Assembly: GCA_964597895.1 (NCBI GenBank)
Contig: CAZQZS010000001.1
Location: 81,008 to 145,007, forward strand
Reading direction: 5' to 3'
DNA length: 64,000 nucleotides
From: an uncultured Candidatus Saccharibacteria bacterium
Lineage (GTDB): Bacteria > Patescibacteriota > Doudnabacteria > UBA920
Shown piece after piece: positions 3,853 through 53,312 of this stretch (its first letter is position 1; each line of letters begins with the position of its first letter). Under the pieces are notes generated by a model, which searched no databases, was not told the origin of the DNA, and saw nothing but the letters and a program-made list of their open reading frames with translations. Both the position numbers and the translations under genes were made by a program.

Positions 3853-4164
3853 ATGAGTTTGAACAAATCTGATTTAATTGAGGTTTTGGCAGCCCGTTTG
3901 TCTATCACTTATACAGAAGCCGAACGCATGCTTAATGCCTTTATTAATTTAATCTACGAATCGCTCAAAAACGGCGAGAAAGTTAACATTAGCGGCTTTG
4001 GCCAGTTTAGCGTTTCTCATAGAGCGCCACGCATTGGTGTTAACCCGCGTAATCCTACCCAAAAGATAGAGATTCCAGAATTGAACACCCCAAAGTTTAA
4101 AGCCGGAGAGGCTTTTAAAGAAGCTGTGAAGTTAAGAAAAAATTCTAGCCATATACAAGAATAA
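3853..4164 (+). CDS. hup: HU/IHF family DNA-binding protein
   Basis: 103 aa with HU signature (GFGQFSVSHRAPRIGVNPRNP). Confidence 0.85.
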   Translation: MSLNKSDLIEVLAARLSITYTEAERMLNAFINLIYESLKNGEKVNISGFGQFSVSHRAPRIGVNPRNPTQKIEIPELNTPKFKAGEAFKEAVKLRKNSSHIQE

Positions 4165-4165
4165 A

Positions 4166-4192
4166 TAAAACCGCCGTAAGGCGGTTTTATTC
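4166..4192 (+). terminator. rho-independent terminator after hup
   Basis: aaaaccgcc-gtaa-ggcggtttt hairpin plus T-run. Confidence 0.6.
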
Positions 4193-4230
4193 TAATTAAG
4201 AAAAAAGCACCGAACGAGATGTCTTTTCTT

Positions 4231-4631
4231 TGGAGCGGGTAAGGGGAATTACGCGTCGGCTTTCTGCTGAAAGCCTCCTTGCCCGGGGTTGCGGAAACCT
4301 GCCACTGGCAGCTTTCCGATCGTTCGCTTTCGGTTTTCTCTGCAGAGAAAACCTCAGCTCACTTCAACCCGTTCGATTCCTCTATAATCATTCCAAAGTA
4401 AAAGCCCCAGCTATCGCTGAGGCATTTACTTTGGAGCGGCTAAGGGGAATGTCGCGTCGGCTTTCTACTGAAAGCCTCCTTGCCCGGGGTTGCGGAAACC
4501 TGCCACTGGCAGCTTTCCGATCGTTCGCTTTCGGTTTTCTCTGCAGAGAAAACCTCAGCTCACTTCAACCCGTTCGATTCCGCTAACTCACCAAAATAAA
4601 AAAGTACCAGGCAAGCTGATACTTTTTTATT
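4231..4631. repeat. 200/201-bp tandem repeat (2 copies) ending in the tRNA-Gly gene; each copy begins with a 19-nt duplicate of the tRNA-Gly 3' end
   Basis: tggagcgggtaaggggaat at 4231 and 4432 (1 mismatch) equals the 3' end of tRNA-Gly at 4632; the rest of each unit is near-identical between copies. Confidence 0.75.
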
Positions 4632-4706
4632 TGGAGCGGGTAAGGGGAATCGAACCCCTATCATCAGTTTGGAAAACTGAGATAATAACCATTATACGAT
4701 ACCCGC
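4632..4706 (-). tRNA. tRNA-Gly (anticodon UCC)
   Basis: Manual cloverleaf: acceptor GCGGGTA/TACCCGC, anticodon stem TCAGT/ACTGA, loop TTTCCAA, T-arm AGGGG-TTCGATT-CCCCT, discriminator U, CCA encoded; close to E. coli glyT. Confidence 0.85.
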
Positions 4707-4742
4707 AATCTAATGGTGATCAAATTTCTGCTTGGGGCAAGT

Positions 4743-4814
4743 TGGAGCAGGCTCACGGAGTGTAGCGACGGGAGCCGTCGCGACAACGCAGGTTAAGCAG
4801 AAATTTGTAAGGCA
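4743..4814 (+). ncRNA. conserved structured motif copy B
   Basis: Paralogue of 601-672 with compensatory change in the closing helix. Confidence 0.3.
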
Positions 4815-4883
4815 CAATAATGCGGAAGGTGGAGTGGGTCCGCCAGGGGCGGGCACACGCAACCTGCAGCATTAATTGGGCCG

Positions 4884-4960
4884 TGGTCGGGAACCCGGGA
4901 CTCGAACCCGGAACCTCTCGGTCCCAAACCGAGTGCTCTAGCCAATTGAGCCAGTTCCCG
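4884..4960 (-). tRNA. tRNA-Pro (anticodon UGG)
   Basis: Manual cloverleaf: acceptor CGGGAAC/GTTCCCG, anticodon stem CTCGG/CCGAG, loop TTTGGGA, T-arm CCGGG-TTCGAGT-CCCGG, CCA encoded. Confidence 0.85.
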
Positions 4961-5203
4961 AAGCATGATTGCCTCAAATCTACATATGTTACCGAGCCAC
5001 AGCCATCTAAGGCTAGAGGCACTCGGTGAGTGCACTATCTCTTGGTCTGCCTTGGGCAGAACCCAATTGAGCCAGTTCCCGAAGCATGATTGCCTCAAAT
5101 CTACATATGTTACCGAGCCACAGCCATCTAAGGCTAGAGGCACTCGGTGAGTGCACTATCTCTTGGTCTGCCTTGGGCAGAACCCAATTGAGCCAGTTCC
5201 CGT
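4944..5203. repeat. 121-bp tandem repeat, about 2.1 copies, first copy overlapping the 5' 17 nt of tRNA-Pro
   Basis: aattgagccagttcccgaagc... recurs at 4944, 5065, 5186 with identical units. Confidence 0.8.
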
Positions 5204-5263
5204 CGCACATATACATCAAATACAAGTTATTCTACTAATTTTGTCGTAAAAAATCAAGCTGGA

Positions 5264-5292
5264 TTGACATTTATAGGATTAATCTGTAAAAT
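5264..5292 (+). promoter_or_regulatory. sigma70-like promoter
   Basis: TTGACA - 17 nt - TAAAAT, followed by RBS aaaggagg and ATG 5353. Confidence 0.5.
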
Positions 5293-5352
5293 GATATAAC
5301 TGATTTTAGGTTCGGCAATTGGCCCGTATTTTGTTCAAAGGAGGAAACTAAC

Positions 5353-5886
5353 ATGTTAGGTGGAAGGCAGATCTTTGGTTTGGCGGTTTTTGTTTTTGTC
5401 GTCGTATCGTGGGTCGCATGGTACGATTGGTCGAAGTTTTATAGTTCGGCTTGTGAGGAGTGGGGATCGTCTGCTATTGACTGCAACAGCGAATCCTATC
5501 GTCCTGCCGATAAGGTCAAGCACTTGCACGAGTATGTGCGCAATCCTGGTAATGCCAAAAGTTTTCAGCAGTACCAACAGCTGGATACAAATAGAGTTAA
5601 GTACTCCGCCGCTGTCCTCAAGACAGACAATGGGGTATATTACTTGAACGCTTTTCCAGATTCCCTTCAGGTTTTGTTTGTAAAGAATGGAATGCAAGAT
5701 CCGGAATTTGGCTGGCAGGATTTTGATGCCGACGGCACCATTGATTTTGCCACCAGGAGGTTGGTCGATAAGTCACCTCCAGTAGTCTACGATTCCGAGA
5801 TGGGCTTAAACCGTGACCTTAGACCCATATTCCAAGCTGCTTACTCTATGCACGTAGAGACCATCACTACCAGGCTTGGCCTGTAG
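5353..5886 (+). CDS. hypothetical membrane-anchored protein
   Basis: 177-aa ORF with strong RBS, N-terminal TM helix; no recognisable family. Confidence 0.45.
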   Translation: MLGGRQIFGLAVFVFVVVSWVAWYDWSKFYSSACEEWGSSAIDCNSESYRPADKVKHLHEYVRNPGNAKSFQQYQQLDTNRVKYSAAVLKTDNGVYYLNAFPDSLQVLFVKNGMQDPEFGWQDFDADGTIDFATRRLVDKSPPVVYDSEMGLNRDLRPIFQAAYSMHVETITTRLGL

Positions 5887-5891
5887 GCGTT

Positions 5892-5926
5892 AGCGGTCGT
5901 TGTTAACGGCCGCTTTTTTATTTTGA
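5892..5926 (+). terminator. rho-independent terminator
   Basis: agcggtcg-ttgttaa-cggccgct hairpin and T-rich tail. Confidence 0.45.
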
Positions 5927-6866
5927 CTTTATATTGGTAGATCTCTGCGCAGCTTGCACAAACAAAACTTTAGCTATTTTTAGGCTAGATTATGACTTTT
6001 AAGCCATTTTGCAAGACAATTTGCTCGGCCAGACCTTCAAGCTAACCGTGAATATACCCCCATAATTAGTTGACCTTTTTGGCCAGGTATTTTATAATAT
6101 ATGCACAAATGAAAAAGATTGGTTGCCAATTAAATAGCAATCTCCAAATGCGCAAATAAGCGTATTTTTGCCAAATCTCCGTATTTTGGCAAAAATCTCC
6201 ATATTTTGCGTGTTTTTTGTTACCAAAGTTGGCCCAAAGTAGTAAACATATATACATTAAAAAATCAGCCATTTTTTGTAACAGCTTACTAGTATAGACG
6301 TCTAATTTACCGTAATCTGACAATCCTAGAAACAAACACCTAAAAAATCGAGTTTAGAGTAATGCCTGACAGACAGGTATCACCCTGAACTTGAATTGTG
6401 TCATTCTTGGGCTCTACCCTGAGCTTGTCGAAGGGGAGAGAGCCGGGATCTATAATTTATGGATCCCCGGCCGCCGTCGGCGCCAGGGATGACAACTAAA
6501 GAATTCTCGGGCGTGAACCGGGATTCCACAAGTTCAGTTAGTTCTTTTTAGTTATTGACTCATTTTGTACCGTTTCTCAAAAGGTGACTTACGTATTAAT
6601 CACCGAGGCCGGTTGGTAGTCTGAGTTAGCGTTAGATTCCTTGGTCCTAGATCAGGGAGGCCTATGCAAACTCGCGGCGCTCTTGCAGCGTCCTGCCCAC
6701 CCGTTTTGGCAGTAAGTATCCTTGGTCGAACTTTTGGGAGCGAGCGCGTGCGAAATGAATTATCAATAATCGGTCTATGTTTGAAATAGGCGAGCGTGAA
6801 CTCTAGAGCTCGCTCGAAACTAACAGATATAGCTCGTTAAACCTAATTAATATTTTTTGAATCTTT

Positions 6867-6894
6867 TATTGATTATCTCAATTGAATAATCAAG
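6867..6894. promoter_or_regulatory. palindromic operator-like site upstream of acidic surface protein paralogue A
   Basis: TTATTGATTATCTCAATTGAATAATCAAG; inverted repeat ttgattat/ataatcaa; related copy at 11011-11040. Confidence 0.4.
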
Positions 6895-6969
6895 ACTGGT
6901 ATTCTCTCTCTTGTCCTAATGAACAACGAAAGAGATTCTGCCAGCCCGATTCAAAAAATGGAGTATTAA

Positions 6970-9204
6970 ATGTCTTTATTTAAGAAAATTGCTGTTGGTG
7001 TATCTACAGTAGCTCTTCCTGCCTCTATGTTTTTTGGCAGCGCTGCTGTAACCAAGGCTGCTACTGCTGGTGGAGTTTACTCTACCCCAGACGGTACCGT
7101 ATGGTTCGTCACTAAGGATATGCAGAAGCGTCCTTTCACTAGCGCAGGTGCTTTCTTGAGCTATGGTTTCTTAAACTTCTCTCAAGTTACCCCAGCTGAC
7201 GCTAGCGTAACCGCTTTGCCTACTGGTAGCTTCATCGCTCCAGCTGACGGCAAAATCTTCTGTGCTACCGAAACCAAAGGTACTGACGTAGCCGGAGAAT
7301 GTGCTCTAATCACTGGAAGCAAGAAAGCTTCCTTTACCTCTGCTGCTGTATTCGCAGCACAAGGCCACAGTTTTGCCCGCGCAATGTATGGTGACTCTTC
7401 CTTCTTGGAAAAGACCTCTAACATCAGCGACGGCAGTGCTGCTCACCTTCCAGGTGTGTTAGTAAACAACGGCGGCACCGTTCAAATGGTTGTCTCCGGT
7501 GGTCTATGGGGTATCCCATCTCAAGATGTGTTCAACTCTTGGGGCTACAACTTTGCTGACGTAGTACCTGCAAACTCTGCAGATACCGCTAAGAGCCAAG
7601 TTGGTGTAATCCCAGCTCGTATGGCTGGCGAACTCGTTCCTACTGGTACTACCGGTGGAACTCCTGGTCCATCTGATTGTAACGTTGACGGCGTAGCTGG
7701 TGACGTAACTATCACTTTGGGTAATGAATACTCTGATGAAGAAGTTGGTGAAGGCCAAGAAGAAGTACCAGTAATGGACTTCGATGTTGAAGCTGATGAT
7801 GATTCAGATGTAGCCGTTACTTCTGTAAAGGTTGAATTAGAACAGACTAACGCTGCTGACTCTGACGACATCACTGATTACATCGACGAAGTTGTAATTA
7901 TGTTTGGTGACGAAGTAGTAGGTTCTGCTGATGCAGACGACTTCTCCGAAAACAATGACCGTTACAGCAAGTCCATTTCTTTGGACGATTGTGTAATCGT
8001 TGATGCTGGTGAAGAAGAAACCTTCACTGTTGCTATCACTGCATTAGAATCTTTGGATTCTGCTGACATTGATACCGATGTTTGGGATGTAGAATTAGAC
8101 TCTCTCCGTTTCGAAGACGGTGATGGTGTAACTACTACCGAAACTCCAGCTGCTGACGCAATTGACCGTGCATTTGATTTCGGTACTTTTGCTGCAGTAA
8201 ACGATGTTGAATTGACTATTGCCCTCGCTGATTCAGACGAAGGCGATGCTATCAATGACGCACACGTTATCGACATCGATGAATCTTCTGATACTGACGA
8301 TGTAGAAATTTTATCTTTCACCATGGAAGCTACTGGCGACTCTGACATTAATGTCACCGAAATTCCAGTAACTATTACTACCACTGGTGAAACTGATGAA
8401 GCTGTATTGTTAATCAACGCCACTCTTTGGATGGATGGTGAAGAACTAGCTTCTGAAGATGTACCAACTGGCGGTGCTGTAACCTTCGAAGACCTTGACA
8501 TTGATGTAGAGGCTGACGAAGAAGTTGAGCTCGTAGTTGCAGTTAGCATTCAAGACACTGACGGTGCAGCTGACAATGGCGACACCGTACAAGCTTCCGT
8601 TACCAGTGGTAACGTTGATGCTATTGAAGCTGAAGACGAAACTGGCGAAGATGTAGCTACTACTGACCTCGAAGGTTCTGCAGTAGGCGACACCCATGCC
8701 GTTTACGATGCTGGTATCATGGTTGATTTCGTTTCTGCAGAAGCAGAACGTACTTTCACCGCTGACGCAGCGACTGAAGATGATCAAGGTACTTATGAAA
8801 TCGTATTTGAAGTAACTGCCTTTGACGGCGACGCTTACATCGACACTTCTTGTGAAGATGACAACGGCGCTGACGCAGCTGGTCAAGGTACAGTATTTGA
8901 TATTAACTCATCTGCTGGTACCCCAACCGGTGGCAGCACATGTCTAGTAGACGCTGCAGGAACCGTAACTGGTGATGTAGTAGGTACTTCTTGGCGTGTA
9001 ATTGAAGGTCAGACTCGTGAATTTACTTTCACAGTAACATTGACCGCTGACTCTACCCCAACCGATGGCAATCACCAAGTTATCTTGGAATCCATCAACT
9101 GGGATAATGAAGCTGGCGGTGTAGATGCTACTCCTGACTTCTTCTACAACTTCAACATGGATGACTTCAAGACTCCATACCTGTTCTTGAACGGTATCGC
9201 GTAA
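6970..9204 (+). CDS. secreted acidic (D/E/T-rich) surface protein, paralogue A
   Basis: 744 aa, signal peptide, conserved N-terminal about 200 aa identical to paralogue B, highly acidic variable C-terminal region. Confidence 0.7.
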   Translation: MSLFKKIAVGVSTVALPASMFFGSAAVTKAATAGGVYSTPDGTVWFVTKDMQKRPFTSAGAFLSYGFLNFSQVTPADASVTALPTGSFIAPADGKIFCATETKGTDVAGECALITGSKKASFTSAAVFAAQGHSFARAMYGDSSFLEKTSNISDGSAAHLPGVLVNNGGTVQMVVSGGLWGIPSQDVFNSWGYNFADVVPANSADTAKSQVGVIPARMAGELVPTGTTGGTPGPSDCNVDGVAGDVTITLGNEYSDEEVGEGQEEVPVMDFDVEADDDSDVAVTSVKVELEQTNAADSDDITDYIDEVVIMFGDEVVGSADADDFSENNDRYSKSISLDDCVIVDAGEEETFTVAITALESLDSADIDTDVWDVELDSLRFEDGDGVTTTETPAADAIDRAFDFGTFAAVNDVELTIALADSDEGDAINDAHVIDIDESSDTDDVEILSFTMEATGDSDINVTEIPVTITTTGETDEAVLLINATLWMDGEELASEDVPTGGAVTFEDLDIDVEADEEVELVVAVSIQDTDGAADNGDTVQASVTSGNVDAIEAEDETGEDVATTDLEGSAVGDTHAVYDAGIMVDFVSAEAERTFTADAATEDDQGTYEIVFEVTAFDGDAYIDTSCEDDNGADAAGQGTVFDINSSAGTPTGGSTCLVDAAGTVTGDVVGTSWRVIEGQTREFTFTVTLTADSTPTDGNHQVILESINWDNEAGGVDATPDFFYNFNMDDFKTPYLFLNGIA

Positions 9205-11095: not shown

Positions 11096-13342
11096 ATGAA
11101 AACTTTTTTAAGTAAAATAGTAACTGGTTTTTCTGTTGTTGCTTTATCTGCAACAATGTTGGTTATGCCGGCTGCTGTAACCAAGGCTGCTACTGCTGGT
11201 GGAGTTTACTCTACCCCAGACGGTACCGTATGGTTCGTCACTAAGGATATGCAGAAGCGTCCTTTCACTAGCGCAGGTGCTTTCTTGAGCTATGGTTTCT
11301 TAAACTTCTCTCAAGTTACCCCAGCTGACGCTAGCGTAACCGCTTTGCCTACTGGTAGCTTCATCGCTCCAGCTGACGGCAAAATCTTCTGTGCTACCGA
11401 AACCAAAGGTACTGACGTAGCCGGAGAATGTGCTCTAATCACTGGAAGCAAGAAAGCTTCCTTTACCTCTGCTGCTGTATTCGCAGCACAAGGCCACAGT
11501 TTTGCCCGCGCAATGTATGGTGACTCTTCCTTCTTGGAAAAGACCTCTAACATCAGCGACGGCAGTGCTGCTCACCTTCCAGGTGTGTTAGTAAACAACG
11601 GCGGCACCGTTCAAATGGTTGTCTCCGGTGGTCTATGGGGTATCCCATCTATTGATGTATTCAATTCTTGGGGCTACAACTTTGCTGACGTAGTACCTGC
11701 AAACTCTGCAGACTTAGTTAAAGAACAAATTGGTGTGATTCCTGCCCGCCAAGCTGGTGAATTAGTGCCGACTGGCCTTACTGGCGGTCCAACTCCTGGT
11801 CCAAAGGATTGTAATTTGGATGGCTCTGCCGGCTCAATTGACGTGGAATCTTCATCCATTTACAGCAATGAAGAAGTGGGCGAAGGGCAAGAAGAAGTTC
11901 CTGTAATGGCCTTCCGTGTAGAAGCTGATAACGATTCCGACATTGAAATCCGCTCTATCCGTGTTGCTTTGGAACACACTGGTTCTGGATCTCAGGACTT
12001 AGACGATTACGCAACCGAAATCACTGTTTGGCAAGGCGATGATATGGTAGGTTCTGCAGATGTTGATGAATTCACCGAGAATAATGACATCTTTACCAAG
12101 ACCATTAACTTGGATTGTGCAGTGATTGATGCAGACGAAACTGAGGAATTCTCGGTAGCTGTTTCTGCATTGCGCAACATTGACTCCAATGATTTGGATG
12201 AAGTTTGGAACATTGACGTGACCAGCATCCGCTTTATGGATGGTGACGGCGTGACCACTACTGAATCCCAGTCTGGCCTGGATCAAGACTTTACTTTTGT
12301 GGATTTTGTCACTGCTGCTGACGTTGAACTTCGCGTTGCTCTTAATGACGACGAGGAAGACATCAATGACGCGCATAACATCTTGGTAGATGAAGACACC
12401 ACCACCAAGAATGAGCCAGTATTGGCATTCACCTTGGAAGCTCGTGGTGATTCTGACATCACTGTGGATGAAATCCCAGTGTTGTTGACCACTGATGACG
12501 ATGATATGGATTCTGTAGCAACTACTGCTCATCTTTATCAGGGTACGACAAAGTTGAGTACAGAAACAATTACTAGCAGCAATACTGACCATGACAATGA
12601 TGCTCAAACTGCTCTGGTTATCTTCGATGATCTCGACTTTGACATCGACGCAGGCGATAAGGAAGAGTTCCAGGTTCGCTTGGATTTTGCCCGCCGCACT
12701 GTAAGCACTTATGCTGAAGGTACTACCGTCCGTGCAGAAATCACTAGCGCCTTGGCTGATTCTGACTTGGAAGCCGAAGACGAAGAAGGTAATGATTTGA
12801 GCTCTAGTGAAATCAGTGGTTCTGCTCTAGGTGAAGACCACTCCTTGTTTACCCAAGGTATTCAGGTAGAAGTAACTTCTAAGCAAACCAATGTTAACAC
12901 TAACGACGGAGCAGACAACGATTCTGTGGAGTTCGTTTGGGAAGTTACCATTACCAACATTGGTGATGAAGATGTATTCATCAATGCCGACAATGCCGAT
13001 GTAGTATCTAGTGATACTGCAGCAGATGTTGACACTTTGTACGCATCTGAGGACGGTGCAGCAACTCTTGGTAGTTTCAGTGGTACAATCACTGATGAAA
13101 ATGCAACCGAGTCTACCGCTAGTGCCGGCAACTTTAATGGTGAAGTGTTCTACAAGATCGCTGCTGGCGGTTCGGAAGACTTTACCATCACCGTGACTGC
13201 GACTAACAGCGCAGGTGCAGGTCAGGTTCGTGGTTGGTTGACTGCCATCGAATGGACAACCAACATTAATGGTGGGGTAGCTGAGTCTTATACCGCTAAT
13301 CTGGTTCAAGATTCACGCACACCATTCAAGCTGGTAAACTAA
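11096..13342 (+). CDS. secreted acidic surface protein, paralogue B
   Basis: 748 aa; DNA 11171-11650 is 100% identical to 7042-7521, then the sequences diverge. Confidence 0.7.
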   Translation: MKTFLSKIVTGFSVVALSATMLVMPAAVTKAATAGGVYSTPDGTVWFVTKDMQKRPFTSAGAFLSYGFLNFSQVTPADASVTALPTGSFIAPADGKIFCATETKGTDVAGECALITGSKKASFTSAAVFAAQGHSFARAMYGDSSFLEKTSNISDGSAAHLPGVLVNNGGTVQMVVSGGLWGIPSIDVFNSWGYNFADVVPANSADLVKEQIGVIPARQAGELVPTGLTGGPTPGPKDCNLDGSAGSIDVESSSIYSNEEVGEGQEEVPVMAFRVEADNDSDIEIRSIRVALEHTGSGSQDLDDYATEITVWQGDDMVGSADVDEFTENNDIFTKTINLDCAVIDADETEEFSVAVSALRNIDSNDLDEVWNIDVTSIRFMDGDGVTTTESQSGLDQDFTFVDFVTAADVELRVALNDDEEDINDAHNILVDEDTTTKNEPVLAFTLEARGDSDITVDEIPVLLTTDDDDMDSVATTAHLYQGTTKLSTETITSSNTDHDNDAQTALVIFDDLDFDIDAGDKEEFQVRLDFARRTVSTYAEGTTVRAEITSALADSDLEAEDEEGNDLSSSEISGSALGEDHSLFTQGIQVEVTSKQTNVNTNDGADNDSVEFVWEVTITNIGDEDVFINADNADVVSSDTAADVDTLYASEDGAATLGSFSGTITDENATESTASAGNFNGEVFYKIAAGGSEDFTITVTATNSAGAGQVRGWLTAIEWTTNINGGVAESYTANLVQDSRTPFKLVN

Positions 13343-20092: not shown

Positions 20093-20379
20093 AATCTCTA
20101 AAACGCTATTTAGATTTACGCAAATTAACCGAACTGCTTGCAACCAAATTTGCCTTGGTGCTTTGGTTGGTTTTGGCTTTGGTCTTGCTCGGCGAGGCCT
20201 GGGTAATCAAGGGTTCTTTGGATAAGATTTTAAAGGCTAATGATAATTCACAGGTTGGTAATGCACAGGTTATTCGAGTTAATTTTTCCTTGTATGACGT
20301 AATTGAGAAGCGTTTAATAGATAATCAAACCTACCTGCCTCCAGAGCCAACCACACGCGATCCTTTTGGTGTGAAGTGA
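20089..20379 (+). CDS. hypothetical small membrane protein (end of pilus operon)
   Basis: 96 aa, ATGA overlap with the pilO-like gene, one TM helix. Confidence 0.35.
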   Translation: MKSLKRYLDLRKLTELLATKFALVLWLVLALVLLGEAWVIKGSLDKILKANDNSQVGNAQVIRVNFSLYDVIEKRLIDNQTYLPPEPTTRDPFGVK

Positions 20380-20457
20380 ACTGAGTAGCCATCGCATGGA
20401 TTCTACAAGGACCTATCTTTTTAGCCATTTAGATATCTAATTTAAAACAACAGGGTT

Positions 20458-20575
20458 GTCTGCTAAAAGCCTCGTTGATCGGGGTTGCGGAAACTTGCCA
20501 CTGGCAGCTTTCTCGATCGTTCAACGCGAATTTTTCTGCAGAAAAATTCTTGCTTCACTTCAACCCGTTCGAGTC
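20458..20575. repeat. tRNA-associated conserved module, copy 3 (22-nt perfect palindrome gaatttttctgcagaaaaattc at 20528-20549)
   Basis: Aligns with 4255-4380 and 4456-4581; shared ggggttgcggaaac.tgccactggcagctttc.cgatcgttc ... cttcaacccgttcga. Confidence 0.55.
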
Positions 20576-20593
20576 ATTCCTAGGAAAACCATA

Positions 20594-20625
20594 AAAAAAT
20601 TCCGAACAAGTCGGAATCTTTTTTT
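20594..20625. terminator. bidirectional terminator (A-run, hairpin, T-run) between pilus operon and tRNA-Lys
   Basis: aaaaaaa-attccga-acaag-tcggaat-cttttttt. Confidence 0.55.
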
Positions 20626-20627
20626 GG

Positions 20628-20700
20628 TGGGTCGGGTGGGACTCGAACCCACGACCGAGTGCTTAAGAGGCACCTGCTCTACCAGCTGAGCTACCGACCC
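20628..20700 (-). tRNA. tRNA-Lys (anticodon CUU)
   Basis: Manual cloverleaf: acceptor GGGTCGG/CCGACCC, anticodon loop CTCTTAA, T-arm GTGGG-TTCGAGT-CCCAC, CCA encoded. Confidence 0.85.
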
Positions 20701-20763
20701 TAGTTTGTAAATACCGCGTAATTATAGCAGATTATAGGGAATTTTGCAACGGATGCGGCTATT

Positions 20764-21435
20764 TTAGAATTTTTTAATGAAATAATCGTTGGCAAACTGC
20801 AGCTGTTTGGGCGTGCCAACTGGAAGCCAGCGAGTAGCACTAACAAGATTGACTTTAGTATTCAGTGCCAGTTTCGCCAAGGTGTGGGGGAGGCTATATT
20901 CAATACCATTTGGCACAGGCACATCAACTAAAGGAATAGAGAAGAACTCTTCTGTTAAGAAGTAGGCACCGCAGTTAATCAAACTGGATTGGTCACTGAA
21001 ACCACCGAAGCTATTGTCTTCATTGCGGACTATTCCATAATTGCTAGTTGCTTGGCTCTGCCAAACTAGCATTGAATTGGGGAGTGCGATGAGCTGTTCT
21101 AGATCTTTCTTCTCATAAAGGTCATCGCCATTCAAGACCAAGAAAGGGCTTTGCAATAAATCTTTAGCCCTGTGCAACGCATCTCCAGTGCCTAGGAGCT
21201 CGGTCTGTTTGACATAATGAATTTGCTTAGTGTTCCAATAACTGCCAAAATGTTCTACGATTTGCTCGCCTAAATAGCCAACCACGATAATAACCTTGTC
21301 TATACTGCTTGGCAAAGCGCCGAGCGTATATTCCAACAAAGGCTGATGGTTGATTTCTATCAAAGGCTTAGGGTGTTTTTCGGTGAATGGCCGGAGGCGC
21401 AGACCTTTGCCGGCGGCGAGAATGACAGCTTGCAT
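20764..21435 (-). CDS. sugar-phosphate nucleotidyltransferase
   Basis: N-terminal MQAVILAAGKGLRLRP nucleotidyltransferase motif; ORF extends to 21474 but the internal ATG is preferred. Confidence 0.65.
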   Translation of the reverse strand: MQAVILAAGKGLRLRPFTEKHPKPLIEINHQPLLEYTLGALPSSIDKVIIVVGYLGEQIVEHFGSYWNTKQIHYVKQTELLGTGDALHRAKDLLQSPFLVLNGDDLYEKKDLEQLIALPNSMLVWQSQATSNYGIVRNEDNSFGGFSDQSSLINCGAYFLTEEFFSIPLVDVPVPNGIEYSLPHTLAKLALNTKVNLVSATRWLPVGTPKQLQFANDYFIKKF

Positions 21436-21502
21436 ATTTTCTAATCCCAAAGGTTCCAGCAGAATTTGGTACAATTAAATTACAATTAATTGGAGGTGTG
21501 AT

Positions 21503-21679
21503 ATGGGTTGCGCTCGTGATAACGAAATGGTAGTGGCTGGTCGGTGTGCCGAACTACAGATTCCATACTTTGCTCCAAGCAAATATCAGTCTAGAAGTTG
21601 GCATAAATTGCTACCAGTAATGAATTTGCTATTAGGCGCTTTTGTCTTTACTGTTTATCGGTTACGATTTTTGATTTAA
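21503..21679 (+). CDS. small hypothetical protein (58 aa, C-terminal TM helix)
   Basis: Strong RBS GGAGGTG 5 nt upstream of ATG; own hairpin terminator immediately after the stop codon. Confidence 0.45.
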   Translation: MGCARDNEMVVAGRCAELQIPYFAPSKYQSRSWHKLLPVMNLLLGAFVFTVYRLRFLI

Positions 21680-21706
21680 ACGGAACTTCTGTTCCGTTTA
21701 TTTTAC
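21680..21706 (+). terminator. rho-independent terminator
   Basis: acggaac-ttct-gttccgt followed by ttatttt. Confidence 0.5.
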
Positions 21707-21716
21707 AATCAAAAAG

Positions 21717-21743
21717 ATTGATGGTGCTCTCGGTAGGATTCGG
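21717..21743 (-). repeat. 27-nt duplicate of the tRNA-Arg(UCG) 3' end, located 204 bp downstream of the tRNA
   Basis: gattgatggtgctctcggtaggattcg is identical at 21717-21743 and 21919-21945. Confidence 0.75.
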
Positions 21744-21924
21744 TCACCTCCCGCTACTCTCCTCTCCTTCGACAAGCTCAGGATCGTCGAGTAACGCTGC
21801 GGCGACCCCCGCCGCTATTGATTGCTCCAAATAGTCGCAACCAATTTCCGCTTGCGCGGAACCGCTCTTTTTCTTATCCTGCTGTGCAATCAATCATTTA
21901 TCATCTACGATGAGAAATGATTGA

Positions 21925-22001
21925 TGGTGCTCTCGGTAGGATTCGAACCTACGACCCCTTGTTCCGAAGACAAGTGCTCTAATCCACTGAGCTACGAGAG
22001 C
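21925..22001 (-). tRNA. tRNA-Arg (anticodon UCG)
   Basis: Manual cloverleaf: acceptor GCTCTCG/CGAGAGC, anticodon stem CTTGT/ACAAG, loop CTTCGGA, T-arm GTAGG-TTCGAAT-CCTAC, CCA encoded. Confidence 0.85.
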
Positions 22002-22062
22002 GAGTAAGAATCCCCGTAAGTTTAGCTCAAAATGGCTTCTAAATCAATGCTATAATCTAGCT

Positions 22063-22989
22063 ATGCTAACTTTACTTATTGGCCAAGATATCTTCGCAAA
22101 ACAGGAGTATTTGGACGCAGAATCAGACAAACACGGTGCAGAGGTAGTAAAATATGATAACATTGCCCAGGTGCCGAATTTAGTTAATCTATCTGGGGCG
22201 AACCTGTTTGGTGGGGCCACGGTCCATGTTTTAATCGGGCTGTTAAAAGAGTATGAATTGCCAGAATTAGAGAAAGCTGCAAGCAGCGAGAGCCTGATTT
22301 ATTTCTGGGAGGATTCGGTAGATAAGCGGCTCACGAAGACTAAGAGCTTAGCAAAAATTGCCGCTATGCAAGAATTCCCGGAACCAGATGCCAACTCGGC
22401 CAGTGCCTGGATCATTAAGCATGCGGGTCAGAATGAAATTAAAATCCAACCTTCTGCGGCAGCTGAGCTCGCAAAGCGTTTATTAGGGGAAACCAAGCTT
22501 GCATTGCCTGTGGTCGCTGCTCACAATGAATTGTTAAAGCTCGCAAGTTACTCGGGCGATAGGGCCATTACCGTAGCTATGGTAGAGGAGCTAACCCCGC
22601 GCGATTTAAGCATTGATATCTTTGGGTTATTAAACCATATTGCTTCTGGGAATAAATCTTTGGCTATGCAGGCCATTAAAAATTATTACGACAACTCCAG
22701 TGAAGATGATAAGGTGCTAACTATTAGATTAGTAGCCTTAATGTCTGATCAGCTGCGCAGTTTGTTGATTGCTAAACAACTTACCGAGCAGGGTTTAACA
22801 GAACAGCAGATTTTAACTGCCACTGGCTGGAAGAGCGGACGTCTTTTTGTTATGAATAAGCTCGGGCGTAATTTTAACCAACCACAGCTGAATACTAGCC
22901 TTACCAAATTATATAATTTAGATAAAGAATTAAAGTCTTCTACATTGCCGCCTCGCGCGGTAATGGATATGATTGTAGCTTCAATTTGA
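22063..22989 (+). CDS. DNA polymerase III delta subunit-like protein
   Basis: 308 aa; weak resemblance to the HolA N-terminal domain; assignment tentative. Confidence 0.4.
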   Translation: MLTLLIGQDIFAKQEYLDAESDKHGAEVVKYDNIAQVPNLVNLSGANLFGGATVHVLIGLLKEYELPELEKAASSESLIYFWEDSVDKRLTKTKSLAKIAAMQEFPEPDANSASAWIIKHAGQNEIKIQPSAAAELAKRLLGETKLALPVVAAHNELLKLASYSGDRAITVAMVEELTPRDLSIDIFGLLNHIASGNKSLAMQAIKNYYDNSSEDDKVLTIRLVALMSDQLRSLLIAKQLTEQGLTEQQILTATGWKSGRLFVMNKLGRNFNQPQLNTSLTKLYNLDKELKSSTLPPRAVMDMIVASI

Positions 22990-49761: not shown

Positions 49762-49987
49762 AAAACTCCTTTGTTACATAATTTTGTAACGATTGGGTAA
49801 TGGTAATTGTAACAATCATATGGTAGCTCCGGCTGGGATTGCACCAGCGACCGCGTCGTATCGGGCTTCGCCCGTGCGACGCCAACTTTCGTTGGGTCGC
49901 AACTCAGCTTCGCCGATACTCCTTTAACTTTCTTACTTAACCTCGCTTTACTCGGCCCAAGTAAGAAAGTTGTCCATGAACTCTTGC

Positions 49988-50090: not shown

Positions 50091-50125
50091 AAGCCCCTGC
50101 TCTATCCAACTGAGCTTCGGAGCCG
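50091..50125 (-). pseudogene. tRNA-Arg 5'-half fragment (acceptor, D-arm, start of anticodon stem)
   Basis: GGCTCCGAAGCTCAGTTGGATAGAGCAGGGGCTTC is about 90% identical to tRNA-Arg(UCU) nucleotides 1-35. Confidence 0.5.
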
Positions 50126-50244: not shown

Positions 50245-50405
50245 ACGTCGTAGTTTTCTTCGGGTTTACGAAATCGGCTAAAGCCAATTTCTACCGCCCT
50301 CCGTAAACTACTCCTGTCACATTCACGATTAACTTCGCTCTGCTCGGCCCAAGTGTGAATGTGGTCTAGAGTAACAACTAAAGAATTATAATGAAAAATA
50401 GAGAA

Positions 50406-52346: not shown

Positions 52347-53312
52347 TTATTTTTTATTGTGAAATTTTTTATGCACGTCTCGCAATTGCTGGTTTGTAAC
52401 GTGAGTGTAGATTTGAGTTGTTGTGATTGAAGCATGCCCTAAAAGAGTCTGTACGCTGCGAATATCTGCCCCATTTTGCAATAAATCAGTCGCGAACGAA
52501 TGGCGAAAGGTGTGCGGCGTAACTTTATGCATGATTCCCGCCAGCATGGCATATTTTTGAACTAACCTCTGCACACTGCGTGCGGTTAGTCCTGGCACTT
52601 TATTATGACCGCCAACGCTTTCCATTTGCCGCTCTACGGTATTGCCAATTTTTGAATGGCTCACAAACAAAGCTGGGTTGTTATCATGCCTTTTCTTTAA
52701 GTAAGACTGAATCGCTCTAATTGCTTCTTCGGACATAAAGGCCAGGCGCAGCTTGTCGCCTTTGCCGCGTACAGTGAATTCGCCGCTTTTAAAGTTTAGT
52801 TGAGTAATTTTTAATTGAACTAGCTCGGAAATACGGATTCCGCTAGAAAACAGCAATTCTAATATGGCGGCATCGCGCAGGCGGTTCATTTCGATCTTTT
52901 CTTCTGCTGTGGCGTCTTTAATGCGCTGGACTTCTTCGTTTGTCATTACGGACACCTCGCGGCTGGGATTCTTGGCTAATTCTATTTTTTCTGCAGAAAG
53001 GGTATTTACGTCTCGTTTAGCCAGGTATTTTAAAAAGGCCCGAACAGCGATTACGTGGTAGTTTTGCGTAATGAGCTTTAAGCGGCGGCCTTTGTCGTCC
53101 TCAAACCGGTTTAGATATAGACGGAAGCTCCGCACGGTATCTAAATTGATATCTTCAGGTCTAAAAATGCCATTTTGTTTGCAAAAATCAGAAAAGCGGG
53201 CGAGATAGTGCCTATAATTGCGGATTGTTAAATCGCTCTTATTTCTTTCTATTTCACAGTAGTCTAGGAAGTCCTGGATGTACTTATCTATTTTTGTTCT
53301 GTTTTCGGCCAT
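52347..53312 (-). CDS. tyrosine site-specific recombinase (XerC/XerD-like)
   Basis: N-terminal SAM-like domain plus HTFRHSFATDLL ... LLGHASITTTQIYTHV catalytic region. Confidence 0.8.
   Translation of the reverse strand: MAENRTKIDKYIQDFLDYCEIERNKSDLTIRNYRHYLARFSDFCKQNGIFRPEDINLDTVRSFRLYLNRFEDDKGRRLKLITQNYHVIAVRAFLKYLAKRDVNTLSAEKIELAKNPSREVSVMTNEEVQRIKDATAEEKIEMNRLRDAAILELLFSSGIRISELVQLKITQLNFKSGEFTVRGKGDKLRLAFMSEEAIRAIQSYLKKRHDNNPALFVSHSKIGNTVERQMESVGGHNKVPGLTARSVQRLVQKYAMLAGIMHKVTPHTFRHSFATDLLQNGADIRSVQTLLGHASITTTQIYTHVTNQQLRDVHKKFHNKK

Follow-up and report, generated by a model that had tools for sequence, protein, structure and literature searches.

Among the described systems closest to the arrangement reported here are the cassettes of SegB, a free-standing GIY-YIG homing endonuclease of about 220 aa. 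To our knowledge, nucleases that recognize the T-loop of tRNA genes have so far been known only from T-even phages. The SegB enzyme of phage T4 targets a 27-bp site that starts with GGTTCRANTCC, often ends with CCAR and is cut just after it (PMC2330249), and in phage T6 SegB drives recombination-dependent tandem amplification at tRNA genes (PMC13096335). Group I introns of Patescibacterial tRNA genes, which lie in the anticodon loop at position 35/36 and must splice, come from the same phylum and are likewise small structured RNA elements of tRNA genes, mostly devoid of endonuclease genes (PMC13011429). Integrative elements residing at the 3' ends of tRNAs, the gene-less remnants of such elements and the arrays of partial tRNAs left by Prochlorococcus tycheposons share with the elements discussed below flanking tRNA 3' repeats, a restored tRNA, tandem accretion and decaying partial copies. 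MITEs, palindromic elements derived from IS200/IS605 and REP elements resemble them in being small, gene-less, structured, multi-copy, patchy in distribution and presumably mobilized in trans.

The locus considered here is a tRNA-Arg(UCG) gene in a Patescibacterial genome, followed by a partial copy of its own 3' end. The window, that is the whole stretch of 64,000 nucleotides that was analyzed, encodes holA (DNA polymerase III delta subunit), BipA, type IV pilus genes, NusB, HU, ribosomal protein S15 and a Xer-type recombinase; the genes around the tRNA-Arg locus are ordinary chromosomal genes, and the homologues of its holA come from Patescibacteria labelled Saccharibacteria or Doudnabacteria. 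The features of the locus, together with the recombinase, are the following.

21925 to 22001, minus strand: complete tRNA-Arg(UCG) with encoded CCA (ARAGORN; Rfam tRNA, 73.4 bits)
21919 to 21945, minus strand: proximal copy of the 27-nt direct repeat, from T-loop C56 to CCA (21 nt) plus TCAATC (exact match search and sequence)
21743 to 21918, minus strand: 176-nt non-coding insert with a structured core (fold, consensus pairs, no Rfam match)
21716 to 21742, minus strand: second, distal copy of the 27-nt repeat, representing a tRNA 3' end that was displaced or duplicated (exact match search)
21678 to 21699, no strand assigned: hairpin AAACGGAAC..GTTCCGTTT between a small plus-strand ORF (21503 to 21679) and the distal repeat, a conserved outer flank
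52347 to 53312, 30 kb from the insert: Xer-type recombinase, the only recombinase found in the window (Pfam on about 40 ORFs, and tblastn)

An exact match search finds the 27-mer GATTGATGGTGCTCTCGGTAGGATTCG exactly twice in the window, at the two positions listed, and in none of 100 dinucleotide shuffles. Read in the tRNA sense it is CGAATCCTACCGAGAGCACCA followed by TCAATC, and thus runs from T-loop position 56 to the encoded CCA and six nucleotides beyond. The first-pass annotation had reported this exact duplicate, placing the first copy one nucleotide off (at 21717 to 21743); the composition it gave, the tRNA 3' end plus four flanking nucleotides, has to be replaced by 21 nt of tRNA and 6 nt of flank. 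The copies are spaced by 203 nt and the 176 nt between them have a G+C content of 51%. Direct repeats of the tRNA 3' part therefore flank the insert while the tRNA-Arg stays intact, as in an att-type layout. Both repeats and the whole insert are present in an independent Logan contig, L001 (SRR28154526), which differs from the window by three SNPs in about 590 aligned nucleotides, all of them inside the insert, and a second contig, L002 (SRR35430756), covers the proximal part of the arrangement. Since L001 reproduces the whole arrangement, the duplicate, whose reappearance in independent assemblies had been singled out beforehand as decisive, stands.

Using holA as an anchor, 26 species-level loci and several metagenome contigs were compared. 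Their holA identity to the window and the state of their tRNA-Arg locus are as follows.

Window and L001: holA identical; homologous insert, 203-nt spacing
L004, L005 and L007: holA 78-79%; homologous insert, 204-nt spacing
L003: holA 79%; a different remnant downstream of tRNA-Arg
L060: holA 68%; a terminator and a small ORF after tRNA-Arg
L008: holA 61%; two 35-nt mini-units downstream of tRNA-Arg
L009: holA 61%; insert absent
L014: holA 52%; homologous insert, 204-nt spacing
L010 to L013, L016 and L062: holA about 39-63%; tRNA-Arg abuts an NTP-transferase gene

The insert is thus absent from genomes as close as L003 (79%), L060 (68%), L062 (63%) and L009 (61%), and in seven sister loci without it (L010 to L013, L016, L062 and L060) the tRNA-Arg lies next to a gene or a terminator. 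The uninterrupted locus that had been proposed as a check was found in the six genomes where the tRNA abuts the NTP-transferase gene. Because of these uninterrupted loci, the comparison establishes, at the level of sequence, that the tRNA-Arg element is an insertion with a patchy distribution and precise boundaries. In all instances the left boundary is CCA plus 0 to 6 nt, and the right boundary falls at T-loop positions 56 to 58, beside a conserved junction motif which in the Arg element is GGGAGGTGAC. L003 and L004 have the outer-flank hairpin beside their tRNA-Arg locus as well. In every intact case the distal repeat reproduces exactly the tRNA-Arg of its genome, across three lineages with three alleles (CGAGAGC, CGGGCGC and CGAGTGC; window and L001, L004/L005/L007, and L014) differing in the acceptor and T-stem, and such exact identity marks recent insertion or homogenization. 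In degenerate relatives (L008, L009, L034 and the tRNA-Lys of the window) the distal copy is mutated, interrupted or truncated, from which it follows that it is dispensable. A tRNA-Arg resident in L008 is interrupted where the 5' strand of its T-stem ends, and the insert holds a complete tRNA-Arg identical in sequence to the window's allele.

Several simple origins were discarded. Slippage would have to account for a tandem duplication in which only 27 of 203 nt are repeated, and an intron in the T-loop is contradicted by the proximal copy, which already completes the tRNA, and by the decay of distal copies in relatives. Unlike the Patescibacterial group I introns, the Arg element follows a complete tRNA, has no group I match in Rfam and carries a distal copy that is dispensable. 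It is not protein-coding either: a 49-aa ORF starting with TTG is in frame in L004, is broken in L014 and has its stop inside the junction. A known RNA family was also rejected, Rfam giving no match for the insert: Rfam 15 at the gathering score detected only tRNAs in the whole window, and at E values up to 5 on positions 4000 to 7000 and 20300 to 22100 only tRNAs and chance matches, none of them to a group I intron.

The insert is nevertheless structured. Its parts, in the order in which they follow the tRNA on the sense strand, are given below.

21887 to 21924, minus strand: hairpin H0, directly after CCA, its sequence varying between lineages with the structure kept (helices 1 and 2 with compensatory changes)
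21871 to 21882, minus strand: degenerate antisense copy of the tRNA T-arm ("anti-T", GCAGGATAAGAA; 9/13 match)
21817 to 21861, minus strand: two internal hairpins, 21846 to 21861 and 21817 to 21845 (predicted fold, consensus)
21743 to 21815, minus strand: long irregular helix (helices 6 to 8 paired at 97-100%)
21765 to 21783, minus strand: GA-hairpin UCCUGAGCUUGUCGAAGGA capping the long helix, the "core" of the first-pass annotation (motif search)

The 5' strand of the long helix, GCGGCGGGGGTCGCC..GCGTTACTCGAC, pairs with the junction GAGGAGAGTAGCGGGAGGTGAC and then with the first 12 nt of the distal tRNA copy, its 3' strand passing through GGGAGGTGAC into that copy. The fold has a z value of -5.3 on the tRNA-sense strand versus -3.0 on the opposite strand. 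An Arg-type consensus drawn from five sequences of only three lineages contains 57 pairs, with 92.5% of cells paired and compensatory changes at 14 pairs; when the partners are slid, pairing falls to about 32-49%, and none of 500 shuffles was as good. G·U pairs are invariant at two positions in all five sequences and are present at a third in four of them. Two of the three SNPs separating the window from L001, a G·U to A-U change and a C-G to U·G change, are compatible with pairing on the tRNA-sense strand but not on the other; of the three, those located in the two internal hairpins are the G·U to A-U change and one loop base. Because of the covariation and the invariant G·U pairs, the modelled fold is well supported as a conserved, strand-specific structure on the tRNA-sense strand that pairs with the distal tRNA fragment. 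Conservation is uneven along the element: the core of the window's element is about 88% conserved in L004 and H0 has wholly diverged, the anti-T match rises from 9/13 in the window to 11/13 in the L014 homologue, and the GA-hairpin has loop and stem variants in L004 and L014.

The predicted lowest-energy fold of a transcript containing tRNA and element pairs the 5' acceptor strand of the tRNA with the distal copy and leaves the tRNA misfolded. There would thus be something to insulate against and, in one of two readings of the structure, the antisense and other internal segments might sequester the distal tRNA fragment and prevent it from competing with the true 3' end.

The GA-hairpin was examined separately, since the insert had been said to share a 25-nt core with a distant intergenic region. 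It is a small hairpin with tandem G·A mismatches, YCCUGAGC..CGAAGGR, and occurs a second time in the window.

6417 to 6443, plus strand: the GA-hairpin again, in the non-coding stretch that precedes the ORF at 6970 to 9204 (motif search)

The alignment proposed earlier, of the insert against the region around 6.4 kb, shows the arms at 6418 to 6438 (plus) matching those at 21762 to 21782 (minus) at 20 of 21 positions. The similarity is real, and 0.02 such hairpins are expected per window-sized shuffle; it does not amount to a specific link between the two regions, because the exact 17-mer of the hairpin, CCUGAGCUUGUCGAAGG, is found in at least 120 IMG/VR viral contigs and the motif occupies unrelated sites in sister loci. 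Beyond 6417 (plus) and 21783 (minus) of the window, it is present in L007 (as hairpin H3 of a type A element, see below), L017, L022, L028 and L039. In 33% of the 135 occurrences of the 17-mer among the matches listed, the flanks extend the stem by 2 bp, where about 6% are expected by chance, and 25 occurrences among the matches listed form one arm of a longer palindrome, CCGTTCG..CGAACGG. No Rfam family matched ten motif-bearing viral contigs, and literature searches returned no paper on the motif.

The Arg element has company in the window. The earlier annotation had suspected a general process targeting tRNA 3' ends, and this view is borne out by tandem units at tRNA-Gly, a unit at tRNA-Lys and relatives at tRNA-Arg, Lys, Trp, Asn and Gly(gcc). 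The units at tRNA-Gly and tRNA-Lys have a conserved core in common, and we refer to them as type A.

4224 to 4650, minus strand: a pair of type A units in tandem downstream of tRNA-Gly(UCC), whose 3' end is present three times (model R1)
20429 to 20582, minus strand: type A unit after tRNA-Lys(CUU), distal tRNA copy lost (model R1, 113 bits)

R1 is a covariance model built here from the type A family, every member of which it finds; at tRNA-Gly it matches 4231 to 4386 with 177 bits and 4432 to 4587 with 173 bits. The tRNA-Gly units measure 200-201 nt, each ending with a 26-nt copy of the tRNA-Gly 3' end. Searching with the core pattern brought up more copies: metagenome contigs have them downstream of tRNA-Trp, tRNA-Asn and tRNA-Gly(gcc), and sister loci downstream of tRNA-Lys. 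The type A order is tRNA, hairpin, antisense T-arm, TCGAACGGGTTGAAGTGAG, hairpin H1, GCGAACGATC, hairpin H2, then GCAACCC..GGGCAA, hairpin H3, GAGGCGGAA and a tRNA copy from T-loop to CCA. In nine sequences the type A consensus has 42 pairs, 95.7% of cells paired and compensatory changes at 19 of the 42, with none of 500 shuffles as good; outside H3 the strand counts are four G·U versus two A·C. The antisense segment matches its own tRNA at 12-13 of 13 positions in nine of ten elements, representing five tRNA species, and other tRNAs match less; in the tenth, which is the decayed element at tRNA-Lys of the window, the match is 10 of 13. This segment pairs with the junction and the distal copy to form helix P1, one position of which covaries with the T-loop of the host tRNA. 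The type A H0 resembles an intrinsic terminator; at the Arg locus no terminator-like U-tract follows H0.

The Arg element of the window presents the same layout: CCA, hairpin, antisense T-arm (degenerate, 9/13), structured core, small hairpin and a copy from T-loop to CCA. R1 does not match it at E values up to 10 and finds the L014 Arg element over its full length with a weak score of 14.5 bits (E = 0.006-0.16), so the relation between the Arg and type A elements is architectural, at best distantly homologous. The link between them runs only through L014. At tRNA-Gly the spacing of about 200 is similar and the intervening sequence is different, as had been stated, with the qualification that the inserts are not wholly unrelated, L014 being weakly matched by the Gly/Lys model. 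A search of the metagenome collection with the Arg junction pattern gave no further Arg-type copies.

Duplications of tRNA 5' ends also occur in the window, at tRNA-Pro and tRNA-Arg(tct). Those of tRNA-Pro have a junction in the D-loop, and the adjoining hairpin copies tRNA positions 17-32. Cutting at the T-loop or CCA does not explain the tRNA-Pro duplications. Literature searches brought up no description of these tRNA-associated elements, and the family of small inserts at tRNA genes in Patescibacteria is apparently undescribed.

Genes have been found at this very position in relatives. In L003, a 407-nt insert between tRNA-Lys and a distal copy encodes an 85-aa GIY-YIG protein and ends with the type A junction GAGGCGGAAGTCCCAC. 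Patescibacteria commonly encode 79-aa homologues, and when L003 and three further protein clusters were looked up, the genes (79-85 aa) were located on the same strand about 110-185 nt (about 140-185 nt in those three clusters) downstream of tRNA-Lys, Val, Arg(gcg) and tmRNA. At tRNA-Arg(gcg), tmRNA and the L003 tRNA-Lys, the cassette starts at the 3' end of the RNA gene, where the hairpin CTGCTTCGC..GCAGTGCA is conserved; at tRNA-Val, other small elements separate tRNA and cassette. A distal 3'-end copy follows the ORF in L003 and L058, and the tmRNA example has one. The proteins consist of the catalytic domain only, and PHROG and NCBIfam models did not match them. A tblastn search disclosed no GIY-YIG gene in the insert or in the 64-kb window, and neither a nuclease nor a recombinase gene lies in or beside the Arg cassette.

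These genes invite comparison with SegB. The duplicated segment (T-loop to CCA, 21-27 nt) is the segment recognized by SegB-type enzymes and the left boundary of the cassettes coincides with the SegB cut position (PMC2330249); tandem amplification at tRNA genes (PMC13096335) has its parallel in the tandem units at tRNA-Gly. As with SegB cassettes, presence varies among close relatives with precise boundaries at the Arg locus, and related cassettes in sister genomes encode a GIY-YIG protein. In contrast, the Arg insert has no ORF, its setting is a chromosome and not a phage, and the candidate Patescibacterial proteins are far shorter. The structured core, the antisense copy of the target and the direct repeats on either side have no equivalent in SegB cassettes that we know of. 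Homing alone leaves the covarying, strand-specific fold and the antisense target copy of the gene-less elements unexplained.

The explanation that we consider probable, if by no means assured, is that the unit formed by the 176-nt insert and one copy of the repeat, about 203 nt long, is a gene-less, non-autonomous mobile cassette which entered the 3' end of tRNA-Arg(UCG) through recombination inside the segment from T-loop to CCA. From its sequence relatives, the cassette reads as belonging to a clade-specific superfamily occupying the same position at many tRNAs, whose members would be gained, amplified in tandem, decay and be lost. By analogy, the leading candidate for the mobilizer is a SegB-like nuclease recognizing the T-loop and acting in trans; the enzyme, the intermediate and any role of an RNA are put forward conditionally. 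The unit would carry one copy (R) of the T-loop-to-CCA segment, so that its insertion into a tRNA gene leaves an intact tRNA, the cassette and a second R. A nuclease recognizing the conserved T-loop and cutting near CCA would make a double-strand break in an empty allele, the small GIY-YIG genes at the same position in relatives being candidates for it, and the cassette would then be copied in as the break is repaired by recombination with a filled allele. Lying inside the conserved tRNA sequence, the two R copies would provide homology arms that travel with the cassette and do not depend on what lies downstream, and unequal recombination would give the tandem units at tRNA-Gly. In the tRNA-sense strand, be it RNA or single-stranded DNA, the distal R is paired with segments inside the cassette. 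The scheme predicts an empty-site junction in which the CCA of tRNA-Arg leads directly to ...TCAATCTTTTTGATTGTAAAAT, and a circle or tandem-dimer junction reading GGGAGGTGAC-CGAATCC..ACCA-TCAATCATTTCTC.

Rather unlikely, in our estimate, is a miniature integrative element or deletion remnant left by a tyrosine integrase with a crossover in the T-loop, now mobilized in trans or dead, for which the repeats would be a classical attL/attR pair at a tRNA 3' end and which would compare with the cis-mobilizable elements that remain once integrative elements have lost their genes. The identity block from T-loop to tRNA 3' end around the insert, the intact tRNA and the accretion of units at tRNA-Gly agree with such an origin, the T-stem-like GGAGGTGACCGAATCCTAC before the distal T-loop resembles a core-type binding site, and the T-loop is reportedly a known sublocation for integrases. 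However, no integrase was detected within or beside about 20 instances across at least 15 genomes, and the term "att-like" used in the first-pass annotation is not supported in its integrase-mediated sense, the only enzyme of this kind in the window being of Xer type and 30 kb away. Compensatory changes and strand-specific G·U pairs are not expected of double-stranded arm sites, and the tRNA-Pro 5'-end duplications do not fit. A phage or plasmid attP source was rejected: the Arg junction and type A patterns have no match in IMG/VR, and blastn of the whole unit against phages and plasmids gave none. The elements further differ from integrative elements and tycheposons in measuring 200 nt, in lacking an integrase nearby, in their conserved single-strand structure and antisense target copy and in their 5'-end versions. 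They depart from MITEs and REP-type elements in being inserted strictly at tRNA genes and in duplicating 19-27 nt of a defined tRNA segment; inverted repeats of a known insertion-sequence family are missing from their ends, and a partner transposase was not identified.

It is improbable that the element is a small RNA beneficial to the host, issued from the tRNA 3' trailer or from its own promoter, with a tRNA-like end and an antisense segment functioning in processing, stability or the control of tRNA maturation and with the duplication as a by-product. The strongly conserved strand-specific structure, the shared strand with the tRNA and the missing U-tract after H0 at the Arg locus, the contrast between conserved core and diverged H0 and the base-pairing of the distal tRNA fragment within the element would all suit such an RNA. 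Against it stand the patchiness in close relatives, the truncated, decayed and tandem copies, the occurrence of the same core at five different tRNAs with flanks re-tailored to each, the terminator-like H0 of type A elements, which would keep the element from being co-transcribed, and the predicted misfolding of the tRNA in a co-transcript. A scan for promoters at the Arg locus found none.

Two further proposals assign the structure a part in insertion itself. In the first, quite improbable, gene-less mobile units of about 200 nt would form a new class that finds tRNA genes by its own nucleic-acid structure, the antisense T-loop-to-CCA copy pairing with the sense copy of the element to act as a folded duplex mimic or guide and an enzyme of the host or one encoded in trans, such as the Xer-like recombinase or the minimal 79-aa GIY-YIG nuclease, performing the insertion; retargeting to a new tRNA would then require a change of only about 20 nt. 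In the second, distinctly improbable, the intermediate would be a single-stranded DNA circle of about 200 nt in which R and anti-R form a hairpin that a Xer-like or HUH enzyme would take for its duplex tRNA target, or else an RNA guiding or templating insertion, with the antisense copy as the recognition device. Such a circle recalls the folded single-stranded attachment site of the CTX phage, and its integration can be likened to that of IS200/IS605-type elements. The layout (R, hairpin, inverted R', core, R) turns R and R' into the covarying helix P1 upon circular permutation, the structure is strand-specific, the tRNA-Pro 5' units hold a hairpin copying a tRNA segment beside the junction, and a Xer-type recombinase is encoded in the window. 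However, the loci compared offer no direct evidence of circles or of reverse transcriptase, HUH or IS110-type genes, group II introns were not detected by a published survey of Patescibacteria (PMC13011429), and the antisense segment is degenerate in the window's Arg element. Lastly, an assembly artefact or a chance repeat, for which nothing speaks beyond the general risk with metagenome assemblies, is practically eliminated by the shuffles, by the independent sample with its SNPs and by the recurrence of the layout in four further assemblies from other species.

We class the elements with the small mobile inserts found at the 3' ends of tRNA genes; their logic is akin to that of homing cassettes and integrative elements. 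Partial tRNA copies of this sort can mislead tRNA annotation and island finders based on att sites, and repeated units can break short-read assemblies; the GA-hairpin, for its part, is exactly conserved over very many viral contigs. If the mobile cassette explanation is correct, the family would offer a tractable case of an element without genes in which the segments matching the target differ according to the tRNA occupied, and would tie the variation of chromosomal tRNA flanks to T-loop-recognizing nucleases. The reduced genomes of Patescibacteria, Saccharibacteria-like ones among them, would then host tiny, structured and hitherto undescribed cassettes at the 3' and sometimes the 5' ends of many tRNA genes, without inactivation of the tRNAs.

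Type A units, a family of structured units of about 200 nt that follow tRNA-Gly, tRNA-Lys, tRNA-Trp and tRNA-Asn genes, were located at two sites of the window and in the comparison contig L036:

4224-4650, minus strand: a pair of units in tandem, 200-201 nt long, after tRNA-Gly(UCC), each closing with a tRNA-Gly 3'-end copy
20429-20582, minus strand: one unit after tRNA-Lys(CUU), scoring 113 bits against R1, the covariance model built from type A
L036 1400-1720: one unit closing with a copy of the tRNA-Asn 3' end

At the tRNA-Gly(UCC) locus, the middle copy of the tRNA 3' end carries one mismatch (TTAGCCGC) and in this form corresponds to the 3' end of tRNA-Gly(GCC) in the contig L038. The tRNA-Lys(CUU) unit is devoid of a distal tRNA-Lys copy and has a diverged 3' part; judged from its sequence, it therefore looks like a decaying copy. 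Upstream of the L036 unit, ARAGORN called no tRNA. The tRNA-Asn gene may be rearranged at this position or may contain an intron, the latter being possible because introns at position 35/36 are known from Patescibacterial tRNA-Asn genes.

Duplications also involve the 5' ends of tRNA genes, and hairpin elements accompany one of these loci:

4942-5221: three repeats of the tRNA-Pro 5' end (first 19 nt), spaced by 121 nt, upstream of the gene
50094-50124: partial 5' copy (31 nt) of tRNA-Arg(UCU), between tRNA-Arg(GCG) and tRNA-Arg(UCU)
49917-49974 and 50309-50366: two hairpin elements, one on either side of this tRNA-Arg pair

Every tRNA-Pro unit holds, inside a hairpin, positions 17-32 of the tRNA copied in antisense. 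These repeats mirror the 3' elements on the 5' side of a tRNA gene, and their junction lies in the D-loop. In the two hairpins bordering the tRNA-Arg pair the stems covary and the loop (..TTAACCTCGC..CTCGGCCCAAGT) is conserved; relatives of these hairpins are encountered upstream of tRNA-Arg(UCG) in the related loci L003 and L004.

The GA-hairpin motif, recorded as a 25-nt core in the first-pass annotation, contains an exact 17-mer, CCTGAGCTTGTCGAAGG (window 6417-6443 and 21765-21783), which also occurs in viral contigs from IMG/VR, at least 120 of them (including L063-L142). Among the matches listed, it often forms a self-contained hairpin in these contigs and sometimes a single arm of a palindromic sequence (CCGTTCG..CGAACGG) about 70-100 nt long. 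Ten viral contigs bearing the 17-mer were scanned against Rfam and gave no family match, and a literature search found no published description of the motif. The window also has two long non-coding stretches that are rich in G+C and contain several hairpins:

6340-6960: upstream of a large ORF (6970-9204)
4707-4883: between tRNA-Gly and tRNA-Pro

Neither stretch matched Rfam. The ORF at 6970-9204 matched no Pfam family; over 300 nt, its start shares 90% identity with that of the ORF at 11096-13342.

In Patescibacteria, GIY-YIG genes (79-85 aa) are situated on the same strand as a tRNA-Lys, tRNA-Val, tRNA-Arg(GCG) or tmRNA gene, about 110-185 nt downstream of it (L003 3315-3572; L042-L058). Their conserved 5' leader opens with CTGCTTCGC..GCAGTGCA, and ORF-less remnants of it occur in L003 after tRNA-Arg, in L014 after the tRNA-Arg element's distal repeat copy and in L009 after the tRNA-Lys element.

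A further relative carries a composite locus:

L008 2700-2960, minus strand: chimeric tRNA-Arg locus

It comprises, in order, the 5' part of the resident allele, 19 nt, a complete tRNA-Arg identical in sequence to the window allele and two 35-nt mini-units ending in the 3' end of the resident allele. This mixture of alleles, read from sequence, suggests transfer between lineages.

When window 21480-22070 was compared with the independent assembly L001, all three SNPs fell inside the 176-nt tRNA-Arg(UCG) insert and none in the flanking 400 nt or so. In the lowest-energy folds predicted for tRNA plus element (21716-22001; 4425-4706, minus strand), the tRNA 5' acceptor strand pairs with the distal copy; for tRNA-Gly (4425-4706, minus strand), the antisense region is also predicted to pair with the genuine T-arm and 3' strand. 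If co-transcribed with its tRNA, the element could compete with tRNA folding.
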